From Planctomycetota bacterium (lineage in GTDB: Bacteria > Planctomycetota > UBA1135 > UBA2386): a stretch of DNA of 64,000 nt. Every line of letters begins with the position of its first letter. Position 1 is the stretch's first letter. This document shows positions 6,229 to 63,819 of this stretch, piece after piece. The DNA lies in assembly GCA_965228735.1 (NCBI GenBank), contig OZ245838.1:5312001-5376000 (forward strand), in the 5' to 3' direction. The notes under the pieces were generated by a model. That model was not told where the DNA came from and searched no databases. It worked only from the letters and a program-made list of their open reading frames with translations. Made by a program: the position numbers and the translations under genes.

Positions 6229-7653
6229 ATGCGCGCCTTCCTGCACGTCGTGTCGTTCGCCCTGGCAGCGGCCTTGTCGATTCGGTCGGAGCTGCCGGCC
6301 CAGTTCGGCTTCCGCGCCGGCGATCTGTTCCTCTACACCCCGTCGACGGTCACGAACGGCTACATGCTCCTCCGCATCGATCCGCTGTCACCGACGCCGA
6401 CGCCGCTCATTCACTTCGACACGACGTGGATCGCGCAGGCGCGCGATGGGGCGTGCTACGACCCGGCGCGCGATCGCATCCTCGTGAGCGCCGGCCTGAC
6501 GAGCTCGACACCGGAGCTGTGGGCCGTCGACTTCCTCGGCAACGCGACCAGCCTCGGACACTCGGGCTACTGGCTCAACCAGATGACGGCGCGCGGTGAC
6601 GGCATCGTCTACTGCACGCAGGTGCCCGGCACGCTCACCGAGATCCTCGTGCTCGACTCGATCGGCGGGCTGCAGCCGCTGATGGACTCGGCGGGCGCCG
6701 CGCCGTTCGTTGCGCCGATCTTCGATCGGATGATCTACCACCCAGGTGAGAACGCGCTCTACCTCGCCGAGAACGCGTGGTTCACCGGCGCCTGTTCGCC
6801 GGGCACGTGGACCGGCGACATGATCAACCTGCACCGCGTCCCGCTGACAGCGAACGGCATGCGCGTCGCCGGCCCCGTGACGTGCGCGTCGCTCGACATC
6901 TCGACGTCGGCGCAGGCCGCGACTGGCTGGAGTCTGCTGCCGGGCGGTGACCTGCTGCTCGTCGTCGACACCAACAGCAACAGCCTCGAGCCGCGCATGC
7001 AGCGGATCGATCCGACGACGCTCGCAGCGAGCACGTTCGCGAGCAACGGCCCCTACATCGGCGCGGCCAGCAAGCCGGCCGGCATCTGGTCGAACACGCT
7101 CGGCAGGGCCGTGCTCGTCGATACGTACTCGCACGTCCTGCGCGCCTTCGGCCCCGGCGAGGCGGGAGCGGGCACGGTCCTGCCGCCCGTCGGCGTCACG
7201 TTCCCGGCGTTCAACCACAGCGTCCTGCGGCTGTTCGAGATCGGTCCGGTCGCCACGACCGCGAGCCTCACGGGTTCGCCGCGCGACGTCTCGCTCGCGA
7301 CGGGCGGGCTGCACACGCTCGAGTTCGACAGCGGCACGCAGGGCGGCGCGATGTACTGGATCCTCGGCTCGATCAGCGGTTGGAACCCGGGGCTCGACGT
7401 GCTCGGCACGACGGTCTGGGTGCGGCCGGACTTCTACACCAACTACACGATCAGTTCGCCCAACGCGGGGATCCTCAGCGGGACGCTCGGCGGCGTGACG
7501 GCGGGCGTGCCGTCGATCGCCACGGTCAGCGTGCCGCCCGCGTTGCCGCCTGCGCTCGCCGGCATCGTCGTGCATCACTGCGCCGCGGTGTTCGACACGG
7601 GGCTCAATCCGCTCTACGCGACCAACCCGGTGAGCCTGCGACTCGTGCCCTGA
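6229..7653 (+). CDS. Exported beta-propeller-like protein with planctomycete-type C-terminal domain
   Basis: Signal peptide ending ...LPAQ, beta-rich repeats, C-terminal SLATGG...YWILGS...PDFYT...ATNPVSLRLVP. Confidence 0.75.
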   Translation: MRAFLHVVSFALAAALSIRSELPAQFGFRAGDLFLYTPSTVTNGYMLLRIDPLSPTPTPLIHFDTTWIAQARDGACYDPARDRILVSAGLTSSTPELWAVDFLGNATSLGHSGYWLNQMTARGDGIVYCTQVPGTLTEILVLDSIGGLQPLMDSAGAAPFVAPIFDRMIYHPGENALYLAENAWFTGACSPGTWTGDMINLHRVPLTANGMRVAGPVTCASLDISTSAQAATGWSLLPGGDLLLVVDTNSNSLEPRMQRIDPTTLAASTFASNGPYIGAASKPAGIWSNTLGRAVLVDTYSHVLRAFGPGEAGAGTVLPPVGVTFPAFNHSVLRLFEIGPVATTASLTGSPRDVSLATGGLHTLEFDSGTQGGAMYWILGSISGWNPGLDVLGTTVWVRPDFYTNYTISSPNAGILSGTLGGVTAGVPSIATVSVPPALPPALAGIVVHHCAAVFDTGLNPLYATNPVSLRLVP

Positions 7654-11589: not shown

Positions 11590-12903
11590 CTAGTTGTCGA
11601 CGCCGAAGACCGACGACACGCGGTTCGACATCGTCAGGCCGAGCGCGTTCGCGGCGCCGTCGAGCACGGCGATCTGCTGCTCGATCGGGAGACCGATGAA
11701 CGCCGGGTCGGCCGGCGAGCTGATCAGCCAGAAGTCGTTGCCGTTGGCGTCGGCCATGGCGAACGACTGGTCGATCGGATCGACTTCGACGAGGCAGCCC
11801 GGCGCGCCGAACGGACCGAGGTCGTAGGGCGTGCCGAGCGTCCCGAGGCCGAGGACGCGCAGCAGCGGACCGTTCGCCGGGATGCCGGCGCCGTCCACGT
11901 AGAACTCCGAGCCGAGGCACGGCGTCTCGGTGATGACCGCCGGGCCGGCGACGTTGGCGCGGGCGCCGAGCGTCGGGCCGCAGCCGCCCGTCTGGATCGT
12001 GACCGAAGCGTCGCCCAGCGGCGTCGCGGCGGCGAGCGAGATGCGGAGCTGGTAGGCGCCGGTGTCCCAACCGCTGACGGCGACGTAGTAGGTGCCCGGC
12101 GTCGTGATGTTGTACTCGAGACGCGACAGGTAGTTCGGGAACCCGATGTCGTCGTTGAACGCGATGCGGGCGAGAGTCGAGTCGGCGAGGTGGAGGACGG
12201 TGTCGGTCATCGCCGGCGCCGGCAGGCCCGTGAAGTCCGTCGTCATGACCAGGAGGCCCGGAGCCGGGACCGTGATCTCGTAGAAGTCGTAGTCACCGAC
12301 GCCGGTGTAGGTCGAACCGCCGACGGCCGCGCTGATGTCGCCGACGTTGTCGGTGTCGAGCGGCGTGACGCCGGCCATGCCGAGCGGCTCGCGCGGGTCG
12401 TTCTCCTCGGGCGCCTCGTTCGGGCCTGGCGTCGCGGGCGGAATGGCCGGCACGTAGGTGCCCGGCGCAGCCGCGACGACGTCGAGCGTGTAGGCGCCCG
12501 TGCCCGACGGATCGAACGTCTGGCTCGAACGCACGCGGACGAAGTAGGTGCCGGCCGGCAGGTCACCGGCGACGACCTCGGACAGCCAGTGGTTGGGGTG
12601 ATCGTCGTTGAACGCGATCTCCGTCACGCCGTCCGTGTCGAGGAGCGCGACGTCACTGTCGGCGAGCGGCGTCGCGCCGAAGCCGACGTTGACCCAGACG
12701 CGCAGGTCCGAGTTGCCGGTGAGCGTCACGGCGTAGAAATCGAAGTCACCGCCGACGCCGATCGCGCCGTCGCCCTGCGTGTTCGGGGCGAGGGCGGTGG
12801 CGGTGGTGAAGTCGTCGTTCGGTTCGACCTCGGGCGTGCCCTGGGCGATGAGGCTGCCGGCGAGCAACGTGGAAGAGGCGAAGAGAAGAGCGTTGAGGTT
12901 CAT
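11590..12903 (-). CDS. Exported protein with two PPC (pre-peptidase C-terminal)-like domains and a planctomycete-type C-terminal domain
   Basis: Signal peptide; EVEPNDDFTTA, DFDFYAV...AFNDD...LPAGTYFVRV, and a second DYDFYEI...AFNDD...PGTYYVAV. Confidence 0.85.
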   Translation of the reverse strand: MNLNALLFASSTLLAGSLIAQGTPEVEPNDDFTTATALAPNTQGDGAIGVGGDFDFYAVTLTGNSDLRVWVNVGFGATPLADSDVALLDTDGVTEIAFNDDHPNHWLSEVVAGDLPAGTYFVRVRSSQTFDPSGTGAYTLDVVAAAPGTYVPAIPPATPGPNEAPEENDPREPLGMAGVTPLDTDNVGDISAAVGGSTYTGVGDYDFYEITVPAPGLLVMTTDFTGLPAPAMTDTVLHLADSTLARIAFNDDIGFPNYLSRLEYNITTPGTYYVAVSGWDTGAYQLRISLAAATPLGDASVTIQTGGCGPTLGARANVAGPAVITETPCLGSEFYVDGAGIPANGPLLRVLGLGTLGTPYDLGPFGAPGCLVEVDPIDQSFAMADANGNDFWLISSPADPAFIGLPIEQQIAVLDGAANALGLTMSNRVSSVFGVDN

Positions 12904-21544: not shown

Positions 21545-22477
21545 ATGACAGCCGAACTCGATGGGCGGCGGTTCGTGATCGCAGGTGGCAGTGGCTTTCT
21601 GGGCTGCAATCTCGCTCGGCATCTCGCCGAGGCGGGATCGGACGTCGTGATCCTGTCGCGCAGTCCCGCGCCGGCCGGCCCGTGGCGCTGGCTCGAGTGG
21701 GACGCGCGCACCGTTGGTGATTGGCGCGAATGCCTCGACGGTGCTGCCGGCGTGGTCAACCTCGCTGGCCGGACCGTCGACTGCATCAAGACGCCGGATC
21801 ACTGCGACGAGATCCTGCGATCGCGCGTCGAGTCGACCCACGCGGTCGGCGCAGCGCTGCAGAGCGTCGAGAAGCCGCCGCCGGTCTGGGTGCAGATGAG
21901 CACGGCGCACATCTACGGCGACCCGCCGACCGTCAAGTGCGACGAGGACTCGGCGTTCGGCTTCGGGCTCGCACCGATCGTCGGTCGCGCCTGGGAGGCG
22001 GCGCTCGCGGCAGCCGCGCCATCCGGCCTGCGCACGGTCGTTCTGCGCACGAGCTTCGTGCTCGGCGGCACCGGTGGCGCGCTGCCGACGTTGGCACGGC
22101 TCGCGCGCTGGGGACTCGGCGGCACGATCGGGCACGGGCGCCAGGGGATGAGCTGGATCCACGAACGTGACATGAATCGTCTGTTCGAACGTGCCCTGCT
22201 CGATCCGACGATGCGCGGCGCCTACCTCGCGACCGCGCCGCGTCCCGTCAGCAATCGCGACTTCATGCGCAGCCTGCGGTGCGCGCTCGGCCGCCCGTTC
22301 GGCCTGCCCGCACCGGCGTTCGCCGTGCGCATCGTGGCGCCGCTGCTGCTGCGCACCGACCCCGAACTCGCGCTCTACGGGCGCTACTGCGTCTCGCGCC
22401 GCCTCGCCGAGGACGGCTTCGCCTTCGAGTTCGAAGAACTCGAAGGCGCGCTGCGCCACCTGCTGCGGGGCTCCTAG
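21545..22477 (+). CDS. NAD-dependent epimerase family, TIGR01777/YfcH-like with DUF1731
   Basis: [21 protein letters not shown] and [11 protein letters not shown] motifs. Confidence 0.9.
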
Positions 22478-23340
22478 AAGCGGAACGTGCCGAACACCGA
22501 GAACATGTCCTCGTCGGCGCCGTTGCTGTCGGACGCTTCGAAGTGCGTGAGCTCGGCGTTCACCGCGATCGTCGGTGTCACCCAGGCCGCGCCGCGGACG
22601 CCGACCGTGACGCCGGCGCGCAGGTCGGCGCCGCCGAGCGAGAGGTTCAGTATCGCGCCGCCGCTGTATTCGGGCGTGAAGTAGAAGTCGCCCTCGGCGC
22701 CGATCTCGAAGTTGACGTCGTCGGTGCTGCCCGGGTCGACGTGCACGAACTGCGCGTGCGCCTCGACGTTGATCGCGCGATTGTCACCGATGTCGCGAAC
22801 CACCTTGCCGAACGCGCCGAACACGGTCTCCGTGATGTTGAGCAGGCCACCGGCTTCGGTCTCCTCGCGCGAGAACCGGCCGCCGATGATCATGTCGTCC
22901 TCGAGCCAGTAGCCGAGATCGCCGTGGATCAGCCACTGGTCGACGTCGACGCCGCCGTCGCCGCTGAGCGAGCCGTACTCGAAGCCCGCGGTCGCCGCGA
23001 TCTGCTCGTCCGGCTTCGCGTAGCGGAACTCGGCGCCGACGGTCGGCCCGTCCGCGTCGAAACCGCCGATCTCGAACCGCGTGTAGTCGATGTCGGCCGC
23101 GACGTACATCGCCCGTTCGAGGAACGCCGCCTCCGTGCGCGGGTGGGCGCCGACGCTGACGGCGTCGAAGAAGTAGCGCCCTTCGACGAACAGCGTGTTG
23201 ACGTCGATGTCGGGGTTCGTGTCGGTGGTCGTGGAGCGCCATCCGGACAGGATCTCGTACTGGAACAGATCCGGGTCCTGGGCGGCGAGGGCGGGGGAAA
23301 GCGCGCCCATCGCGAGGGCGAGCCACGTGGTCTTGGTCAT
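22474..23340 (-). CDS. Outer-membrane beta-barrel, putative porin
   Basis: Signal peptide, amphipathic beta-strands, GRYFFDAV...[10 protein letters not shown]-terminal ...GTFRF. Confidence 0.8.
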
Positions 23341-23524
23341 CGGGATCTCCATCGTTGGGGATCCTCCGTATCGGCCATGCCATCGGAAAGCTGTTCCCAA
23401 ATCGTCGATTCGGTCGCACCGGTGAATCCCGATTCCAAGGACCCACCATGCAGCACCACGGGAGCCCTCGAGCAGCAGGCGGGAATGGCGGGTTCTCTGT
23501 CCCGAGCCCTATGCTCGGCGCGCC

Positions 23525-25189
23525 ATGTTCGACCCGACCCGTGCATCGCTGCGCCTCGCCGTTCTCCTCGCGACCCTCGGCCCGATCGTCGCGCAGAACG
23601 ACCCGATCCCCGACGGCTTCTCGCGTCAGGACTGGCTGCGCGGTTCGATCTCGCCGGAGCGCGCCTGGTGGGACGTGCAGCACTATGCGCTGGCCCTCGA
23701 GGTCTTCCCCGAGAAGAAGAGCATCGCGGGGCACAACACGATCCGGTTCAAGGCTCTGAAAGCCGGCAAGCGCATGCAGGTCGACCTGCAACCACCGCTC
23801 GCGGTCACCAAGGTGATGCACGGCGAACGTGAGCTCGAGTTCGAGCGCGAGGGCAAGGTCTACTGGGTCGACTTCCCCGAGGCCGTTCCGGCCGGTCGCG
23901 AGACCACGGTCCGCGTGCACTACGAGGGTCGGCCGCGGCAGAGCACGCGACCGCCGTGGAGCGGCGGCTTCTCGTGGCGCAAGGACGATCGGGGCAAGCA
24001 CTTCATCGCGACGACGTGCCAGGGCATCGGTGCGAGCATCTGGTGGCCCAACAAGGACCACGGCGCGGACGAACCGGATCAAGGCATGGACATCATCGTC
24101 ACGGTGCCCGAGGGCCTCGTCGCGGTGTCCAACGGCCGTCTGACGGCCGATGTCGCGAACACCGAGGCCGGGACGCACACGTTCCACTGGACGGTGACGA
24201 ACCCGATCAACAACTACGGGGTCAACGTCAACATCGGCAACTACGTGAGCGCCGAATCGACGTACCAGGGCGAGGGTGGCGAGCTCGACGTGCAGTACTG
24301 GATGCTCGCGCACGAGCAGGAGCAGGCCAAGAAGCAGTTCGCCGAGGTGCCGCGCACGCTCGCCGCGTTCGAGCACTGGTTCGGCAAGTACCCGTTCTAC
24401 GAGGACAGCTACAAGATCGTCGTCGTGCCCTACCTCGGTATGGAGCACCAGAGTTCGGTGACCTACGGTAACGGCTACCAGAACGGCTATCTCGGGCGCG
24501 ACCTCAGCCGCACCGGCGTCGGCATGAAATTCGACTTCATCGTCGTGCACGAATCGGCCCACGAGTGGTGGGGCAACAACGTGTCGATGCAGGACGCGGC
24601 CGACATGTGGATCCACGAGAGCTTCGCGAACTACGCGGAGAACCTCTTCGTCGAGTACCACTTCACCGCGAAGGAGGCGCAGGACTACGTGATCGGCTGC
24701 CGCGCGCTGATTCAGAACGACACGCCGATCATCGGCACCTACGGCGTCAACAAGTCCGGCTCGGGCGACATGTACTACAAGGGCGGCAACATGCTGCACA
24801 CGATGCGGCACATGCTCGACGACGACGACAAGTGGCGGGCGATGCTGCGCGCGGTCAACGAGCACTTCTGGCACCGGACCGTGACGACCGCGGAGTTCGA
24901 GGCGTTCGTGAGCGAGCAATGCGGGTTCGACTTCGGCAAGGTGTTCGATCAGTACCTGCGCACGACGAAGATCCCCGCACTGCACTACGCAGCAAGTGCG
25001 GACGGCAAGACGCTTAGCCTCTGGTTCGAGAACGTCGTGGACGGCTTCGAAGTGCCCGTCGACGTGCGGATCAACGGGCTGGAACGGCGCGTGACGGTCG
25101 GCACGAAGAAGCTGCAGGTCCCGCTCGAGGCGAAGCTGGCGGCCTTCAAGCTCGACCGCAACTTCTACATGCGGACGGTCGAGGGATAG
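23525..25189 (+). CDS. M1 family zinc aminopeptidase, exported
   Basis: LGMEHQ, HESAHEWWGN...MWIHESFANY and MYYKG motifs. Confidence 0.93.
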   Translation: MFDPTRASLRLAVLLATLGPIVAQNDPIPDGFSRQDWLRGSISPERAWWDVQHYALALEVFPEKKSIAGHNTIRFKALKAGKRMQVDLQPPLAVTKVMHGERELEFEREGKVYWVDFPEAVPAGRETTVRVHYEGRPRQSTRPPWSGGFSWRKDDRGKHFIATTCQGIGASIWWPNKDHGADEPDQGMDIIVTVPEGLVAVSNGRLTADVANTEAGTHTFHWTVTNPINNYGVNVNIGNYVSAESTYQGEGGELDVQYWMLAHEQEQAKKQFAEVPRTLAAFEHWFGKYPFYEDSYKIVVVPYLGMEHQSSVTYGNGYQNGYLGRDLSRTGVGMKFDFIVVHESAHEWWGNNVSMQDAADMWIHESFANYAENLFVEYHFTAKEAQDYVIGCRALIQNDTPIIGTYGVNKSGSGDMYYKGGNMLHTMRHMLDDDDKWRAMLRAVNEHFWHRTVTTAEFEAFVSEQCGFDFGKVFDQYLRTTKIPALHYAASADGKTLSLWFENVVDGFEVPVDVRINGLERRVTVGTKKLQVPLEAKLAAFKLDRNFYMRTVEG

Positions 25190-28498: not shown

Positions 28499-30334
28499 AT
28501 GTCGTGCCGCTCTCTGCTGCTCACGTTCGCCGTCGGCACGTTGCCGATCGCGGCGGCGATGGCCCAGGGCGCCGGTGCTCCCGAGCGGCCCGCGGTGCCG
28601 GCCCTCGTCGAACGCTTCTGTGCCGAGTGCCATGCCGGGCCCGACGCGGATCGCGACCTGGACGTCACGACGTTCTTCGGCCCGCAGCATGATGCGGTGG
28701 CTGCAGGTCCGTTCGTCGAGAAGCTCGATCTCGTCGTGCGCCGGGTGCGTGGTCGCACGATGCCGCCGCCCGATGCCGACGAACTGCCGACGGCAGATGA
28801 GCGGCGCGCACTCATCGCCGAGTTCGCTCGTCTCGCGCCGCGGCGCCCCGGCGCGCGGATCGCCACGATGCGTCGCCTCACGCGTCGGCAGTACGAACGC
28901 AGCGTGGTCGCGCTCTTCGGCCTGCCGTGGCGCGCGCGCGACCTGCTGCCCGACGACGCGACCGCGCACGGGTTCGAGGGCGTCGGCGACGTGCAGAACG
29001 TCTCGCCGTTGATGTTCGAGAAATACCTGGACGCCGCGAACGACGTGGCGACCGGCGTGCTCGGCGATACGGCGGCGACGGCGCGGGTGTTCCGTGACGG
29101 CGTCGAGCTGGCTGCTGCGCTGCGTTCGTTGCTCGCCCGGGCGTACCGCCGCCCCGTTGCTGCGGACGAGGTTGCCGGCCTCGTCGCCGACCACGCGGCG
29201 ATGTTGGCGCGAGGGCTCGACGAGCCGCAGGCGCGGCACGCTCTGCTGCGGGCGATCCTCGCGTCGCCGAGCTTCCTGTTTCGAGCGGAGACCGGGCAGG
29301 TCGACGCCCCGCAGTTGTTGACCGCGCACGAGGTCGCCGCGCGCCTGGCGTTCATGCTCACGGCCGGCCCGCCCGATGCGGAGCTGCGCGCGTTGGCAGA
29401 TGACGGTTCCTTGCTCGAGCCCGAGGTCCTCGAGGCCGCGGCGCTGCGGCTCGCGCGTTCGAACGATCGTGGCTTTGCCGAGGACTTCGCGGCGCAGTGG
29501 TTCGGGCTGCGTGACGTGCTCACGCATACCGCGGACTTCCGGCGCTTTCCCGCGATCTGGAACAACAAGCTGCGGCCCGCGCTCTACGAAGAAGCCGTCC
29601 GGATGTTCGCGTTCGTCGTCAGCGCCGATCGCAGCGTGCTCGAGCTGTTGAACGCCGATTACGTGTTCGTCAACGAGACGCTCGCGAAGCACTACGGCGT
29701 CGAGCTCGCGGAGAACGGGGGCGGGTGGCACCGACTCCCGACCGCGAACCCGCGCCGCGGCGGCATCCTCGGCGCGGGCGCGATGCTGATGACGACGTCG
29801 TACGCGTTGCGCACGAGCCCGGTGAAGCGCGGCGAGTGGATCCTCACACGGCTGCTGGATGCGCCGCCGCCGCCACCGCCGGCGGACGCCGGAGTCCTGC
29901 CCAAGGACGACAAGAACGATCAGGGGCGCACGCTGCGCGAGCAGCTCGAGCATCACCGACGCGAGCGGCGCTGCGCCGGTTGTCACGCGGAGATGGACGC
30001 GCTCGGTTTCGCGCTCGAGCACTTCGATCCGCTCGGGCGCTGGCGCGACGAAGTGCACGGCAAGCCGGTCGACGCCGTTGCCGAGTTGCCCGACGGCACG
30101 ATCATCGACGGACCTGTCGCGCTCAAGACCGCGCTCCTTGCGCGCGGCGACGACTTCATCCGGACGTTCGCGAAGAAGCTGCTCGTCCACGGTGTCGGTC
30201 GTGACATGATGCTGGCGGACGAGCCCGAGCTCGGCCGGATCGTCGCCGCTACGCGCGCGGGCGAGGACCGGTTCTCCGCGCTGCTCACGGCCATCGTCAC
30301 GTCACCGTTGTTCCTCATGCGCGACCCCGACTGA
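28499..30334 (+). CDS. Planctomycete cytochrome c domain protein (DUF1587/1592/1588/1585 type)
   Basis: CAECH, MPPP, RRLTRRQY, LASPSFLFR, TSPVKRGEW, CAGCH and GFALEHFD motifs. Confidence 0.9.
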   Translation: MSCRSLLLTFAVGTLPIAAAMAQGAGAPERPAVPALVERFCAECHAGPDADRDLDVTTFFGPQHDAVAAGPFVEKLDLVVRRVRGRTMPPPDADELPTADERRALIAEFARLAPRRPGARIATMRRLTRRQYERSVVALFGLPWRARDLLPDDATAHGFEGVGDVQNVSPLMFEKYLDAANDVATGVLGDTAATARVFRDGVELAAALRSLLARAYRRPVAADEVAGLVADHAAMLARGLDEPQARHALLRAILASPSFLFRAETGQVDAPQLLTAHEVAARLAFMLTAGPPDAELRALADDGSLLEPEVLEAAALRLARSNDRGFAEDFAAQWFGLRDVLTHTADFRRFPAIWNNKLRPALYEEAVRMFAFVVSADRSVLELLNADYVFVNETLAKHYGVELAENGGGWHRLPTANPRRGGILGAGAMLMTTSYALRTSPVKRGEWILTRLLDAPPPPPPADAGVLPKDDKNDQGRTLREQLEHHRRERRCAGCHAEMDALGFALEHFDPLGRWRDEVHGKPVDAVAELPDGTIIDGPVALKTALLARGDDFIRTFAKKLLVHGVGRDMMLADEPELGRIVAATRAGEDRFSALLTAIVTSPLFLMRDPD

Positions 30335-41020: not shown

Positions 41021-43192
41021 ATGCGTCTCGTGGTGTTGGCGGTGTTCTTGCTGAGCGGGTGCGCCGCCGTCCACGAGCCGGGAGCGGCTCACGATCATGC
41101 CGTGGCGCCCGCGTTCACGCTCGAGCGACTGGTGAACGGGCCATCGTGGACGGGGGTGTCGCCGTCGAGCCCGGCCTGGTCACCCGACGGTCGCTGGCTC
41201 GCGTTTCGTTGGCGCGGCGAGGGGTCACGGCGGGAGCTGTGGCTCGTCGAGCGTGACGGCACGGGGCTGCGGCAGCTCACGAACGCGGAGAGTCGCGGGA
41301 GCGCGGGATCGTTCGCGTGGTTGCCGGACGGCGCCGGCCTGCTCGTGCTGCGCGCGGGTGGGCTCTGGCGGCTCGGACTCGATGGCGCCGAGCGGCGCGT
41401 TGCGGATCTCCCGCGCGGTGTCGGCGGGTTCGCGGTCGCGCCGGATGGCCGGCACGCGTCGTTCTCGAAGGACGGCGATCTGTGGCTCGTCGGTCTCGAC
41501 AGCGGCGCGGTCCGGCAGCTCACCGACGTGGGCGAGCCACCACTCTCCGACCTGCGGATCGGACGCTACGCCCGTCGCGAGGTCGAGGTCGGGTCCTACG
41601 TGTGGGGCGGACCGACCTACGCGTGGGCGCCCGACGGCCGCAGCATCGCCTTGCACCTCGTCGATCGGCGGCAGCTACGCCAGGTGCCGTTCCCGAACTA
41701 CCTCGGTGAGGAGACCGATCCGAACTTCGTTCGGCGGTCGTATCCGGGTGATCCCAACGAGCACCGTGCGGTCGCGATCGTCGCGATCGACAGCGGCGCG
41801 ATCGATCGCCTCGACCTCCCCGCGCCGACGGCGACGCGCGTCGTCGACTTCTCGTGGTCGAACGACGGTCGGCTGCTCGTCGATCGTGAATCGGACACGG
41901 CCGTCGACCGTTGGCTGCACGTCTACGACCCGAGCACGCGGCAGCTGCGCGAGCTCTGGCACGATCGCCGCGAGTCGCGGGTCTACACGACGGCGGCCTC
42001 CGCGTGGCACGCGGACGGCCGCCACGTGATCGTGCTGTCCGACCGGGGTGACCGCTACGGGCTCTACGCGCTGGCGATCGACGACCCGCAGCCGCGGCTG
42101 CTGACCGATCCCCGTTTCGACGTGCTCGCCGGGCCGACCGTCGCTGACGACGGCGCGATCTTCTACACCGCGAACGACCCGAGTCCGTACGAACGCCACG
42201 CCGCCGTCACGACGCTCGTCGGCAATGCGAGCAGGCGCCTGACCCGTCTGCGCGGCGATTCCCGCGCGTTCCCGTCACCCGATGGCAAGCACGTCGCGCT
42301 GCTGCACAGCAACGACACGACGCCGACCGAACTCTACCTCGTCGCCGCTGATGCGCCGGGGACGGAGCGGCGCATCACGGACTCGCAGTCGCCGGAGTTC
42401 GCGCAGCAGCCGTGGGCGAACGTGCGCTACGCCACGTTCCCGAGCCTGCACGACGACGCGACGCTGCACGCCCGGATCCTCGAGCCGCGCGACCTCGATC
42501 GGACGCGCCGGCACCCCGTCATCTTCGGCCCGATCTACTCCAACACCGTGCGCAATCGGTGGGGCGGCTTCTACGGCATGTTCCAGCAGGTGCTCGTGGC
42601 CCACGGCTACATCGTCGTGCAGGTCGACGTGCGCGGCAGCACGGGCTACGGCCGCGAGTTTCGCGAGCAGTTCCTCATGGACTTCGCCGGCCGCGACCTC
42701 GACGACCTCGAGAGCGCGGTCGCGCACATGGAGTCGTTGCCTTTCGTCGACCCGGATCGCATCGGCATCTGGGGCAGCAGCTACGGCGGGACGCTCACGG
42801 CCTACGCGTTGTTGAAGAAGCCGGGGCTGTTCGATGCCGGTGTCGCGTGCGCCGCGGCGGTCGATCCGCACTTCTTCGGCAGCGACGACGTCGCGATCGT
42901 CCGACGACCCGCGAGCCACCCGGCAGCGTTCGAGCGCGGCGCGGCGCAGTACGCGGCCAACCTCGAGGACCCGCTGCTCCTGATTCACGGGATGCAGGAC
43001 CAGGTCGTGCCGTTCAAGACGGCGGTCGATCTCGCCGAGGCGCTGATGCGAGCGGGCAAGGACTTCGACTTCGCGTTCGCGCCGGCCGGCACGCACGGCT
43101 GGACCCGACCGTCGCACTACGCGCGCTACCTGCTCGGCAAGCTGATGGCGCACTTCGAACGGCACCTCGGCAGCGGCGAGCAGGACGGCTGA
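41021..43192 (+). CDS. S9B dipeptidyl peptidase IV-like lipoprotein
   Basis: LLSGC lipobox, propeller WSPDG repeats, GIWGSSYGG, HGMQDQVV and GTHG. Confidence 0.9.
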   Translation: MRLVVLAVFLLSGCAAVHEPGAAHDHAVAPAFTLERLVNGPSWTGVSPSSPAWSPDGRWLAFRWRGEGSRRELWLVERDGTGLRQLTNAESRGSAGSFAWLPDGAGLLVLRAGGLWRLGLDGAERRVADLPRGVGGFAVAPDGRHASFSKDGDLWLVGLDSGAVRQLTDVGEPPLSDLRIGRYARREVEVGSYVWGGPTYAWAPDGRSIALHLVDRRQLRQVPFPNYLGEETDPNFVRRSYPGDPNEHRAVAIVAIDSGAIDRLDLPAPTATRVVDFSWSNDGRLLVDRESDTAVDRWLHVYDPSTRQLRELWHDRRESRVYTTAASAWHADGRHVIVLSDRGDRYGLYALAIDDPQPRLLTDPRFDVLAGPTVADDGAIFYTANDPSPYERHAAVTTLVGNASRRLTRLRGDSRAFPSPDGKHVALLHSNDTTPTELYLVAADAPGTERRITDSQSPEFAQQPWANVRYATFPSLHDDATLHARILEPRDLDRTRRHPVIFGPIYSNTVRNRWGGFYGMFQQVLVAHGYIVVQVDVRGSTGYGREFREQFLMDFAGRDLDDLESAVAHMESLPFVDPDRIGIWGSSYGGTLTAYALLKKPGLFDAGVACAAAVDPHFFGSDDVAIVRRPASHPAAFERGAAQYAANLEDPLLLIHGMQDQVVPFKTAVDLAEALMRAGKDFDFAFAPAGTHGWTRPSHYARYLLGKLMAHFERHLGSGEQDG

Positions 43193-43333
43193 TCGTCGCG
43201 TAGGGCGGCCGCCTGTCAGGTCGCATGACAGCGCGAGAGCGCGCCGCCTGATTGGACGAGCTTCGGGCCGTTGGCCTGGTGCTATGGTCCCGAGTGCTTC
43301 GTTTCGTTCGCGTTCACTCCGCAGGAGCGACCC

Positions 43334-44410
43334 ATGACCGAGATCATCCGCACCAGCGCAAGCGCGCTGTTGTTCACCGCCGTGGCAGCCGCGCAGTTCA
43401 TCCACCCGATCACCTACATCGACGCCGACACCCAGAGCAATACCACGCTCGCCGATGGCACGGCCTACACGCCGACGACGACGCTCGCGACGAGCGGCAC
43501 CGACGACGAGTGGTTGCTGCGGGCGTTCGGCAACGGCGGCACGGTGCTCTCGAGCCACGACGTCGCCAACTCCGACGAGGACGCGCCGATGCTGCGCACG
43601 ACGATCACGGGCCTGATCCCGACGTTGTCGTACTACGTGTACTCGTACCACTGGAGCAACGGCCAGTCGTGGCGCGGCCGTGCCCTCGTGTCGACCTCGC
43701 AGCCCGCGCCCGAACTGCCGGGCTACAACACCGTGCACTTCAACGGCTCGGCGTTCGCCCCGATGCAGCCGCTCGCGATCAGCGCCGCGCTCGGGTTCGG
43801 TCAGTCGTCGCTCGCCCTGACGTTCGATGGTCTGGGGTTCGAGAACTCGGGTCACTTCGCGCAGCCCGCGCTGATCTCCGAGGGCAATCGCACGATGTAC
43901 GAGGTCTGGCTCGGGGTCCATCAGGCGGATGCGCAGGGCGAGATCCACGTCTATGTCGACGATCTCGCGGGGCCGCAGGTGCCCGGCAACCGCACGTGGT
44001 TCGACGGCGTCGGCTACGAGATCGCGCCGCTGCCGCAAGGCACGCCGTGCGGCAGTCCGCAGCCGACGATCGGGTTCGAGGGCGCGCCGATCATGACGAC
44101 GGCGTTCACCTGCCGGGTCGACAACGCGCCGCCGAACGCGCTCGCCATGGCGTTCCTCGGGTTCAGCAATACGACGTGGACGGGCGGGTCGCTGCCGTTC
44201 AACCTGGCGATCATCGGCTTCCCGACCTGCTCGCTCTACGTGTCGCCCGACCTGAGCTTCTTCAAGGTCACCGACGCCAGCGGTTCGGCCGACCACGAGT
44301 TGACCCTGCCGGTGTTCACACCGCTCACGTTGCACTGGCAGTGGGGCGTGCTCGATGCCGGCAACAACCTCAGTGGGACGCAGACGATCGAGACCGTGTT
44401 TCACCGTTAG
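43334..44410 (+). CDS. Exported protein with planctomycete-type C-terminal domain
   Basis: AGGAG RBS, signal ending AAAQ, C-terminal GTPCG...LPFNL..IGFPTCSLYVSPD...DASG...LHWQWGVLD. Confidence 0.8.
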   Translation: MTEIIRTSASALLFTAVAAAQFIHPITYIDADTQSNTTLADGTAYTPTTTLATSGTDDEWLLRAFGNGGTVLSSHDVANSDEDAPMLRTTITGLIPTLSYYVYSYHWSNGQSWRGRALVSTSQPAPELPGYNTVHFNGSAFAPMQPLAISAALGFGQSSLALTFDGLGFENSGHFAQPALISEGNRTMYEVWLGVHQADAQGEIHVYVDDLAGPQVPGNRTWFDGVGYEIAPLPQGTPCGSPQPTIGFEGAPIMTTAFTCRVDNAPPNALAMAFLGFSNTTWTGGSLPFNLAIIGFPTCSLYVSPDLSFFKVTDASGSADHELTLPVFTPLTLHWQWGVLDAGNNLSGTQTIETVFHR

Positions 44411-44448
44411 CGCTTGCGCCGGAGTGACCGGCTCGTCCTCGGGCGAAG

Positions 44449-44964
44449 CTACTGGACGGTCACGTCGAGCGCGGGGCCGAAGCCGAGCTGGCCGCCGTTG
44501 CTCACGCCGACGCTCTGCACGCGGATGACCAGGCCGGTCGGCGCATTGTTCGGCACGTTGAGCGACCAGCCCGCGAGGCCCTGGTTGCAGGGCGTCGGAA
44601 CGAACGGCGGCGCGCTCGTGAGTCCGACCGTGACGACCTGCAGCGTCGCGCCGTGGAGCATCACCGGGTTGTCGATGCCCGGGATGGTTGCGCACGGGCC
44701 CGGCAGCGAGATGCCGATCATGAATGCCGTCTGCGGCGCCGAGCCGTGGGTGTAGTTGCGGAACGAGCCCGCCGGAACCGTGCCCGCGGGCAACGCGCCG
44801 CAGGTGACCGCGCCGCATTCCTGGCCGTAGATCACGGGTGCCGGATTGTTCGGCCGCGATGTGAGGCCGATGTCCGTGGCCTGCGCGGCGACCGGGGTCA
44901 GCAGCGAGCACGTCAACAGGGCGCTCGCGATCAGGTGGGAGGAGGTCAGAGTGGTGAGACGCAT
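44449..44964 (-). CDS. Small exported protein consisting largely of the C-terminal-type domain
   Basis: AGGAG RBS, signal ending VAAQ, YGQECG...LNVPNNAPTGLVIRVQ...GPALDVTVQ. Confidence 0.75.
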   Translation of the reverse strand: MRLTTLTSSHLIASALLTCSLLTPVAAQATDIGLTSRPNNPAPVIYGQECGAVTCGALPAGTVPAGSFRNYTHGSAPQTAFMIGISLPGPCATIPGIDNPVMLHGATLQVVTVGLTSAPPFVPTPCNQGLAGWSLNVPNNAPTGLVIRVQSVGVSNGGQLGFGPALDVTVQ

Positions 44965-45112
44965 GTCGTTCTCCTGGATGGTCGTTGGACTGTCCTGACG
45001 AGCGCCGCGGCGACCGAGGTGGCAGGGGCTCAGCGTGCTCGGGAACAACCTAGTCCGTCAGTGGCCGGAGGTTGCCGCTTCGAGGCACATTGCCCGATAT
45101 GCTCCGGCCCCG

Positions 45113-45820
45113 ATGAGCACGTCACCGCGCGAGAGCTACGCGTTGCGGCGCACCCTGCGCGGTCGCTACTTCCTGCTCCTGCTCGCGCTCATCATCCTCG
45201 GCCTCTCGTACCCGCTGCTCCTGGCCGGTCTCGGCGGCCGCATCGCATGGCACGTCACGCTGTGGCTCGTGCTGCTCGGCGGCTGGCGCGCGATCGAACT
45301 GCACCCGCGCATGAACGGGGTGAGCGAGGCCCTCGCGCTCGCGGCGCTCGGCACCGGGATCTGGCAGCTGGTCGTCGGCGAGAACGAGGTCGTGCCGACG
45401 GTTCTGTTCGCCGCGACGACGTTCGTGTTCCTCGCCGTCACGGAGGTCGTGCTCCTCGCGGACGTGCTCGGGGGCGATGCGCGGGCCGTCGACGTCGACA
45501 AGCTGCTCGGAGTGATCTGCGCCTACGTCGTGCTCGGGCTCGCCTTCGCGTTCTTGTTCCTCATCTGCCACGCGCTCGACCCGGAGGTCGGCGCCATCAC
45601 GCCGTGCCCCGAGGAATCGTGGATCGCGGATTACCTGTATTTCAGCTTCGCCACGCTCACGACGGTGGGCTACGGGGATCTCGTGCCCGTCGGCGCGTTC
45701 CCGCGGTTGATCGCGGCCTCCGAATCCGTCGTCGGGATGCTCTACCTCACGATCGTGGTCGCGCGTCTCGTTGGGCTGCACATCTCGAGGAACATCGGCG
45801 TGCCGCTCGGGCGCGGCTGA
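45113..45820 (+). CDS. Potassium channel family protein (Ion_trans_2)
   Basis: YFSFATLTTVGYGDLVP selectivity filter and several TM helices. Confidence 0.9.
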   Translation: MSTSPRESYALRRTLRGRYFLLLLALIILGLSYPLLLAGLGGRIAWHVTLWLVLLGGWRAIELHPRMNGVSEALALAALGTGIWQLVVGENEVVPTVLFAATTFVFLAVTEVVLLADVLGGDARAVDVDKLLGVICAYVVLGLAFAFLFLICHALDPEVGAITPCPEESWIADYLYFSFATLTTVGYGDLVPVGAFPRLIAASESVVGMLYLTIVVARLVGLHISRNIGVPLGRG

Positions 45821-62229: not shown

Positions 62230-63819
62230 TCAGCGGTTGCCGCTGGCCTCGGCGGCCGCGGCCGCGCGTTCGTCCTTCTGCCGCTGCACCATCACGGCGA
62301 CATCGGCGAGCAACGCCTTGCTGTCGTAGACGATGCCGTCCTTGATGGTGTAACGCACTCCGCCGACGCGCGTTGGCTCGCCGCTCTCGTCGTCGAGCTT
62401 GAGTGCGCCGGTGCCGTAGAGCACCTTGAAGTTGGCCAGCGGGTTCTCCTCGACGAGCACGAGGTCCGCGAGCATGCCCTTGCGGATCACGCAGAACTCG
62501 ATCGGCTTCCCCTTCGGCTCGAAGATCGTCCGCGCGCAGTTCATCGTCGCGGCCTGGATCACCTCGAGCGGGTGGAAGCCGGCTTCTTGCAGCAGCTCGA
62601 ACTCCTCGATGTGGCCGAAGCCGTAGGTCTTGTAGATGAAGCCCGCGTCGGCGCCGACCGTGATGCGGCCGCCCATGCGTTTGTAGTCGTTCACGAGCTG
62701 CATCCAGACGCGATAGAAGTTGCGCCACGCGACCTCGTCGGCCGTCGTCCAGTAGAACCAGTACGAACCGTGGAAGCTGCGGCTCGGCGCGAAGAAGTCC
62801 ATGAGTGACGGCAGCGTGTAGCGGTCGTGCCACTCGGCGCACCGCGCGCGCATCAGGTCGCGGTTGGCGGCGTAGATCGTCATCGTCGGGTTGAAGACGG
62901 TGCCGAGCTCGAGGTGTTCCTGCAGGTAGGCGTTCCACTCGTCGCTGCCGGGCGGATGGATCTTGTCCCACAGCCGGGCGACCTGCGCGAAGCGCATCTG
63001 CTCGTCGTTGTAGTTCATGTCGACGGGCCACGGCTGCACGACGTGGTCCTTCATGAGCGCTTCGAAGTGCCCGTAGAAGTGCGTCACCGTCTGCAGGCCC
63101 ATGCGCGCGGCGTCGATCGCGTTCATCTGCGCGACACCGGTCTGCGCGAGGTGCGCGATCGTGCCGAGGCCGTGCTTCTCGGCCTCGAGCAGCAGCTGCC
63201 GCATGACCGTCGGCTCGTAGGCGCCGAGCTTGATCCCGTCGAGCCCCGTCGCCACGCGGGCCTCGACCCAGCGCGTCGCCGCCTCGGCGGAGTGCACACC
63301 GTTCGGTCGCTGGTAGTTGAAGATTCGCGGTGCAGTGATCTCGTTCTTGCTGCTGCGCGCTTTCTCGCTCTCCGTCCAGTCGTGGCCGGCGAGCGGCACG
63401 CCGCGGACCGTCGTGATGCCGTGCGCGAGCCAGAGCTTGTAGACGTACTCCGCCTCCGGCGCCTTCTTGCCGCCACCGCAGTGCGCGTGCATGTCGATGA
63501 AGCCGGGCAGCAGGTACATCCCGCGCGCATCGATGACCTTGGTCGGCCGCAGCGCGGGCCCGCCGACGGCGCTGATCTTGTTGCCCGAGATCAGTACGTT
63601 CGTCGGTCCGCGCGGCGGCGCGCCCGTGCCGTCGATCACGATCGCGCCGCGCAGCAGGAGGCGTTCGTAGGGACCTTCCCCCTCGTCATCCGGTCGGTCC
63701 GGCGCCGGGGCGGGGTTCTGCGCGGCGAGCAGCGAGGCGAGGACCCCGACCATCAGGGTCGTCAGCGGGGCGAACGAGCGCGCCGAACGGGTTCGGCGGG
63801 GACGGAACGGTGTGGGCAT
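62230..63819 (-). CDS. Exported amidohydrolase
   Basis: IDGTGAPP, PGFIDMHAH, HGITTVR, GADAGF and G.LADLVLVEENPL motifs. Confidence 0.9.
   Translation of the reverse strand: MPTPFRPRRTRSARSFAPLTTLMVGVLASLLAAQNPAPAPDRPDDEGEGPYERLLLRGAIVIDGTGAPPRGPTNVLISGNKISAVGGPALRPTKVIDARGMYLLPGFIDMHAHCGGGKKAPEAEYVYKLWLAHGITTVRGVPLAGHDWTESEKARSSKNEITAPRIFNYQRPNGVHSAEAATRWVEARVATGLDGIKLGAYEPTVMRQLLLEAEKHGLGTIAHLAQTGVAQMNAIDAARMGLQTVTHFYGHFEALMKDHVVQPWPVDMNYNDEQMRFAQVARLWDKIHPPGSDEWNAYLQEHLELGTVFNPTMTIYAANRDLMRARCAEWHDRYTLPSLMDFFAPSRSFHGSYWFYWTTADEVAWRNFYRVWMQLVNDYKRMGGRITVGADAGFIYKTYGFGHIEEFELLQEAGFHPLEVIQAATMNCARTIFEPKGKPIEFCVIRKGMLADLVLVEENPLANFKVLYGTGALKLDDESGEPTRVGGVRYTIKDGIVYDSKALLADVAVMVQRQKDERAAAAAEASGNR

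Follow-up and report, generated by a model that had tools for sequence, protein, structure and literature searches.

A very large, unnamed domain family on exported proteins of Planctomycetota with a probable role in surface targeting

Results

A 130-residue domain shared by four exported proteins

Four genes in a 64,000-nucleotide stretch of a Planctomycetota bacterium genome (assembly GCA_965228735.1, contig OZ245838.1, positions 5,312,001 to 5,376,000; hereafter the window) encode exported proteins, designated A, B, C and D (Table 1), which carry a domain of about 130 residues (the 130-aa domain). The four were found to be members of a real, very large and unnamed family, of which C is, by sequence, the weakest of the four. 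The domain very probably has some role in surface targeting, and most likely marks the surface proteome of one planctomycete clade. It works like the PEP-CTERM tag or the C-terminal domain (CTD) of the system for type IX secretion (T9SS), while being a member of neither family.

The genome is 7.19 Mb in size and 93% complete, and 5,364 genes were called in it with a codon model of our own. A preliminary description, made from the letters of the window, had proposed that A and B share a C-terminal domain, that D ends in a more distant variant and that C is a divergent stand-alone copy. The tails of A and B matched each other directly (phmmer, expectation value (E) about 1e-6 in a database of four), and those of C and D gave no pairwise match (E 0.03-0.3 in the same database). 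A profile built from 338 other carriers of the genome, without the four window genes, was then searched against 4,970 protein tails and returned A at E 2e-20, B at 2.9e-18, C at 1.8e-4 and D at 3.9e-5, the best reversed tail reaching 0.045; the training set still contained other members of the sub-family of D. All three relationships were thereby borne out. When every reading frame of the genome was searched iteratively, A or B as the start gave 225-267 open reading frames (ORFs), whereas D as the start gave a separate set of 18 and C recovered itself alone. Among the called genes, at E<1e-3, the main profiles matched 330 and the D profile 24, with 6 common to both. A joint profile gave a total of 368 carriers, which account for 6.9% of genes (about one gene in 15) and for 9.7% of the coding residues. 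The profile of the domain matches 30,951 protein clusters at 50% identity.

The domain had been described as belonging to no recognised family, and library searches likewise gave it no name. No Pfam or NCBIfam family matched any of 62 domain sequences (2 from the window and 60 taken at random from 141 strong full-length carriers), a PDB sequence search returned nothing below E 0.26, and literature searches, with subscription journals and bioRxiv supplements outside their coverage, found no published description of such a domain. Source names and the ESM Atlas place the family in Planctomycetota; the Atlas matches were unnamed clusters from this phylum, the named ones (0.79-0.82) being CHRD-bearing planctomycete proteins that serve as leads only.

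Exchange with PEP-CTERM and nature of the cargo

The strongest single result on function is an exchange of anchors on the cargo of A. Among 48 homologues of this cargo, 35 carried the 130-aa domain and 10 a PEP-CTERM tail, two were partial and one had no tail. The PEP-CTERM tails, 2 recognized by Pfam PF07589 and 8 read by eye, joined the cargo at the identical junction, after the same last cargo strand. As the domain occupies the slot of a known surface-sorting tag, it likely delivers or tethers its carriers to the surface by an undescribed route. No corresponding exchange with the T9SS CTD was seen on choice-of-anchor B proteins among the 120 top-ranked of 3,379 hits, which were all close relatives.

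Pfam families (E<1e-5) were present in 32 of 60 sampled carriers and included peptidases M14, M43, S8 and C1, Kelch and other propellers, FG-GAP and MauG-type peroxidases. In a scan of 61 carriers ELWxxDGT repeats were found in four, and choice-of-anchor B (TIGR04312) scored above cut-off in two; choice-of-anchor B cargo also ends in the 130-aa domain in two distant genomes. Clustering of 285 cargo regions gave 104 clusters, 81 of them singletons, with one cluster holding 96 of the 285.

The median Lys+Arg+Glu content of the cargo was 8.1%, compared with 17.4% in other proteins whose signal peptide ends in AQ. Cargo was rich in Thr, Ser and Asn (8.6, 6.9 and 4.6%) and poor in Lys (0.6%) relative to cytoplasmic-type proteins (5.2, 4.7, 2.2 and 2.9%, respectively), and the same Thr/Ser/Asn-rich, basic-poor composition has been reported for PEP-CTERM cargo (PMC1569441). 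The domain was present in 245 of 300 low-charge soluble proteins and in none of 382 high-charge proteins with an AQ signal; many of the remaining 55 low-charge proteins look by eye like divergent carriers, lipoproteins or pilins. The suggestion that the window encodes an unrecognised sorting or anchoring domain is thus supported by the PEP-CTERM slot, the choice-of-anchor B cargo, the extracellular-type composition and the lack of a library name.

Position of the domain and signal peptides of its carriers

Of the 330 main-family copies, 304 (92%) ended within 20 aa of the stop, 13 were followed by an extension of 21-60 aa, 12 were N-terminal and one was internal, with essentially one copy per protein. 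A hydrophobic leader was detected by a simple heuristic in 317 of 359 carriers, of which 242 had an xxAQ ending. The expectation that the domain would always be C-terminal and always on signal-peptide proteins therefore described most carriers, but not the N-terminal and internal ones. About 10 genes were judged by eye to encode a signal peptide and the domain only, other short matches being fragments or mis-called starts. Tandem copies suggested by a cluster search were not confirmed, since the example examined (P0009) had one copy only.

Several unusual arrangements were observed. In G000:C1:946145-947680, 6751723-6753279 and 3613313-3614869, and in L081, the domain or a divergent form of it is N-terminal and followed by Kelch-like repeats; such a protein is kept in a distant genome, and these are candidate core components. 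In the 13 carriers with an extension (for example G000:C1:4294128-4295378, 2282327-2283466 and 5417712-5419076) 30-45 residues follow the domain, often with a hydrophobic end strand. The haem-type protein at G000:C1:5455433-5457286, read by eye, has dockerin-like EF-hand repeats followed by a C-terminus resembling the 130-aa domain, apparently two anchor types in series.

All four window ORFs exist as had been described, with leaders ending in xxAQ or PAQ. The AQ ending was present in all four, but is not specific to carriers, as 559 non-carriers share it by a loose pattern, six of them within the window. Across the genome, whether in carriers or in non-carriers, most predicted signal peptidase I (SPI) signal peptides are directly followed by Gln; examples from the window are 22474-23352, 23525-25189, 28499-30334 and 62230-63753. 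This pattern resembles the Q-rule, which is described as Bacteroidetes-specific in the main text of PMC5837995, where planctomycetes are not mentioned. The type I glutaminyl cyclase (PF05096) was not found in the genome, no search being aimed at the type II enzyme.

Conserved residues and predicted fold

Alignment of the 62 domains gave a mean column identity of 21%. The profile has 134 positions and the domain about 125-135 aa, with Lys making up 0.2% of its residues; the median best 19-residue hydropathy is 1.36, and there is no basic tail and no conserved terminal residue. Over 325 hits in the genome, conservation of core columns was strongest at Gly29 (0.91), Gly87 (0.84), Pro96 (0.94) and Gln109 (0.96). 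Both of two Cys columns were filled in 179 sequences, neither in 39 and one in 17. The disulfide raised as a possibility in the preliminary description is supported by this co-occurrence, although the sequences are related.

The AlphaFold2 model of the domain in A (predicted local distance difference test (pLDDT) 85) is a seven-strand immunoglobulin (Ig)-like sandwich in which the third strand is followed by a hydrophobic insert of 30 residues; to judge from the strand hydropathy pattern, the insert would cover the sheet bearing the Gln. The model of C (pLDDT 80) has the strand order of the A domain and shares its structural neighbours, matched over the same chain ranges, which together with the held-out profile score upholds its reading as a stand-alone copy, the sequence link by hhalign being weak (probability 1.5-2.5%). 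The best structural neighbours were macroglobulin domains and other Ig folds at Z scores of at most 9.0. Structure prediction, proposed earlier as a check, yielded a sandwich common to A and C; Foldseek with the domain model gave nothing at E 0.001.

Comparison with known modules

The T9SS type A CTD (TIGR04183, Por_Secre_tail) is likewise a seven-strand Ig-like sandwich, a likeness that for the 130-aa domain is predicted and holds at the level of the general fold. It too is borne by hundreds of proteins that have a signal peptide and whose cargo differs from one to the next, the cargo classes being similar and including choice-of-anchor B. T9SS CTDs are described as having 67-108 aa, seven Ig-like strands and a conserved Lys in the last strand (PMC11285876). 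The 130-aa domain, in contrast, is longer, has a long hydrophobic insert and a Cys pair, and lacks a terminal Lys motif. Because of its length, the missing Lys, the N-terminal and stand-alone copies and the failure to find PorV, we consider it not to be a T9SS CTD. TIGR04183 matched 0 of the 62 domain sequences and, in the genome, 0 of 9 candidates, with controls silent too; the PorV shuttle (PF19572) had no match in the genome, which is 93% complete, a Bacteroides control being positive; and SprA (TIGR04189) had none, with no control giving a match either. Neither T9SS CTD nor ML chains were among the best 50 VIA-align matches, where short chains score low.

PEP-CTERM with exosortase (TIGR02595, PF07589) resembles the family in occupying the same slot on the same cargo, in occurring in many copies per genome or none, on signal-peptide proteins with diverse cargo, and in its cargo bias. 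The PEP-CTERM tag is, however, a motif with a transmembrane helix and a basic tail, whereas the 130-aa domain is predicted to be a folded beta domain. The analogy with these two systems drawn in the preliminary description was supported as regards a sorting or anchoring role. It was weaker as regards a strictly C-terminal signal such as the T9SS CTD, for the domain also occurs alone or immediately behind the signal peptide, and a dedicated machine was not found.

Three further modules were compared. The GC-type dockerin (NF041540), presumably a lineage-specific terminal module on exported planctomycete proteins, is similar in this respect and in starting near a Gly-Cys motif, but the 130-aa domain has no EF-hand repeats or calcium loops and is a predicted beta sandwich; no dockerin family of Pfam or NCBIfam matched the 62 domain sequences, and their consensus contains no EF-hand loops. 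The ML/NPC2/MD-2 family (PF02221) likewise comprises disulfide-bonded exported sandwiches of about 130 aa, and weak full-length Foldseek matches to NPC2, MD-2, Der p 2 and GM2 activator (E 0.017-0.09) are at most a lead for a lipid pocket; TM-scores were about 0.3 and root-mean-square deviations (RMSD) 11-14 A, and PF02221 matched nothing in the genome at E 10 and 0 of the 62 domains. Macroglobulin (MG) domains (alpha-2-macroglobulin/TEP1/CD109) came closest in structure, aligning over about 107 residues with Z 8.2-9.0 and RMSD 3.1-3.4 A, but with 9-14% identity these were not clearly above other Ig-like matches, and what is common is the arrangement with an insert, not demonstrated homology.

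Distribution

The 130-aa domain was found in 30 of 31 close genomes. In an even sample of the phylum 42 of 201 genomes were positive, 40 with at least four matches and two with one (at most 21 scored per genome). An RpoB tree of 30 genomes placed the 17 positives in one group (SH-like approximate likelihood ratio test 88, midpoint root only) with the domain-negative genome G021 nested within it; the row of G038 was disregarded for its aberrant long branch, probably a mis-picked ORF. The domain marks one multi-order clade of Planctomycetota, with an all-or-none distribution. G021, of the same order (2.9 Mb, 91% complete), had no domain match, its choice-of-anchor B protein has a different tail, and it represents a natural loss. 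At least 10 PEP-CTERM matches were found in 0 of the 42 domain-positive genomes versus 22 of the 159 negatives (at most 40 candidates scored). The source genome has a small PEP-CTERM set of three genes and one exosortase in a polysaccharide locus, separate from the domain family.

Four genomes outside Planctomycetota had a single passenger copy each. The MauG-type carrier was represented by 79 loci, of which 75 gave an aligned domain. Planctomycete copies kept the Gln in 26 of 29 cases and none of the 29 had further C-terminal domains, whereas those of Acidobacteriota and Verrucomicrobiota had Arg at this position in 43 of 43 and further C-terminal domains in 33 of 43, TIGR03437 being identified in two of eight extra tails scanned. 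Loss of the Gln together with extra tails outside the phylum suggests that the Gln matters solely where the system exists.

Secretion machinery and candidate partners

A GspD-like secretin was present in the source genome and in all four small or distant positive genomes tested. The source genome has seven secretins, one of them within a run of genes that we take, from sequence features, to be GspD-E-F-like. Type II secretion is reported to be required by GlyGly-CTERM and MYXO-CTERM cargo (10.1101/2023.06.07.544157), and by this precedent it is the most economical route for the carriers. No secretin type separated G021 from the positive genomes.

Some 48 barrel-like genes were recognized in the genome by a simple heuristic, none of them a SprA-sized unknown. 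Two unnamed barrels, L061 and L062, occurred in 2 and 3 of 33 genomes (single-protein queries) and were discarded as candidate partners. At 22474-23352 (- strand) the window encodes an exported, barrel-like protein of 292 aa that has no Pfam family. A gene at G000:C1:6767480-6768559, which we take from a motif to be actin-like, lies between two long secretin-like genes. It is possibly the MamK-like 'saltatorellin' of 10.1101/817700.

Discussion

Proposed function and alternatives

We favour, with moderate confidence, the reading that the 130-aa domain is an uncleaved docking module which holds Sec-exported proteins on the outer surface in a PEP-CTERM-like role. A carrier would cross the inner membrane by Sec and be cut before Gln, and its domain would fold and form its disulfide in the periplasm. 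The folded carrier would then cross the outer membrane, most plausibly via the type II secretion system, after which the hydrophobic insert and the Gln-bearing sheet, which together make up one face, may bind non-covalently to a clade-specific envelope component, candidates being a lipid or glycan of the outer membrane and a partner protein. C and other stand-alone copies could be docking units with variable loops as their sole cargo. The flexible position of the domain (12 N-terminal, 1 internal, about 10 stand-alone) suits a binding module and was counted in favour of docking.

Several points weigh against docking. The surface location rests on composition and cargo type, the 245/300 figure counts the low-charge residues of the domain itself, and the exchange with PEP-CTERM was seen for a single cargo family, that of A. 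The exclusion of PEP-CTERM sets from positive genomes is in effect one comparison because all positives belong to one clade; Gln may have been replaced by Arg in a single inherited event, and Arg is also present in two copies labelled as planctomycete. G021 keeps GspD, PilQ, the orphan and both long secretin types, so that none of these secretins ties the domain specifically to type II secretion, a link that we infer. No partner or dedicated machine was found with L061 and L062 profiled, 11 further unnamed barrels being outside the test. The predominantly C-terminal position would equally be expected of an export signal.

It is this last alternative, in which the domain is an export-recognition signal for an undescribed outer-membrane translocon or type II system, possibly later removed like the T9SS CTD, that we regard as possible, if doubtful. 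The seven-stranded Ig-like model has the general architecture of T9SS CTDs (PMC11285876), 304 of 330 copies are C-terminal, the cargo consists of peptidases, propellers, FG-GAP and ELWxxDGT repeats, and for extracellular-type SPI proteins the domain is near-obligatory. The copies that are N-terminal, internal or stand-alone nevertheless fit such a signal poorly, as do the absence of a conserved terminal residue, the scarcity of Lys and the failure to find PorV with a positive control or a SprA-sized unknown among the barrels; the sole C25-peptidase gene looks unlike a PorU sortase, having no evident signal peptide and no secretion neighbours. Self-binding of the domain, by which carriers and stand-alone copies would tile the cell as a mosaic coat (a surface-layer (S-layer)-like lattice or fibre), is unlikely: protein C and the other stand-alone genes, the share of coding residues taken by the family and the construction of some S-layers from Ig-like domains (7ptp, Z 7.0, among many equal hits) would agree with it, but the low mean column identity is hard to square with one common lattice interface, no one subunit stood out as major and conserved, and tandem copies were not confirmed. 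That the domain plays no part in surface targeting and is a generic Ig-like spacer, an aid to folding or a module for periplasmic retention, multiplied by duplication, is very improbable, since the generic structural matches (Z at most 9), the clustering of carriers (66 adjacent pairs versus 20 expected) and the one large cargo cluster are outweighed by the number of cargo clusters and singletons, essentially one copy per protein, the exact exchange with PEP-CTERM and the absence of the domain from all 382 high-charge exported proteins.

On a bolder reading, the domain might be the address label for a system of surface display not yet described, which goes back to the ancestor of a multi-order planctomycete clade, handles up to a tenth of coding capacity, works from either protein end with no sortase and either grips an outer-membrane lipid in a pocket under the insert or engages a translocon outside the numbered secretion systems; this we put forward tentatively.

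The family is very large and unannotated, and it probably labels the entire surface proteome of a planctomycete clade that is widespread and for the most part uncultured; with a profile of the domain curators could read the surface enzymes and adhesins of such genomes at once. Given the all-or-none distribution and the loss in G021, the search for the partner or machine becomes a direct task of phylogenetic profiling. If it is true that cultured strains of the Saltatorellus clade carry the domain, it would also provide a handle on the envelope of these shape-shifting, aggregating cells (10.1101/817700).

Features of the window

Coordinates of the four carriers and their parts are given in Table 1. 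A and C are convergent, their stops lying 38 bases apart (window 44411-44448) with no terminator-like pattern between them; no promoter or terminator patterns were found at 43100-45200, and Rfam gave no match in the window. C has 18 homologues of 149-187 aa, this being the length range searched.

Table 1. Carriers of the 130-aa domain in the window, with positions counted from its first nucleotide.
Feature	Position	Strand	Remarks
Carrier A, 358 aa	43334..44410	+	Signal peptide, unnamed cargo and terminal 130-aa domain; cargo without Pfam or NCBIfam family
A, predicted Sec/SPI signal peptide, then Gln	43334..43393	+	From sequence, simple heuristic
A, cargo	43394..44020	+	10 homologues run from the same cargo end straight into a PEP-CTERM tail
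A, 130-aa domain, 127 aa	44027..44407	+	Paired Cys codons 44048, 44228; near-invariant Gln codon 44339
C, 171 aa	44449..44964	-	Signal peptide and divergent stand-alone domain copy; mature part 44452-44883
Carrier B, 437 aa	11590..12903	-	Signal peptide, two PPC / DVUA0089-type domains and terminal 130-aa domain
B, 130-aa domain	11593..12021	-	
Carrier D, 474 aa	6229..7653	+	Signal peptide, unnamed cargo and Cys-poor sub-family domain; 18 sub-family members in genome
D, divergent domain	7246..7650	+	E 4e-5 against main profile

Three gene copies with the same N-terminus, which we take to be probably group II intron reverse transcriptases, were observed at G000:C1:5090177, 6551294 and 2580079, and two of them adjoin carrier genes.
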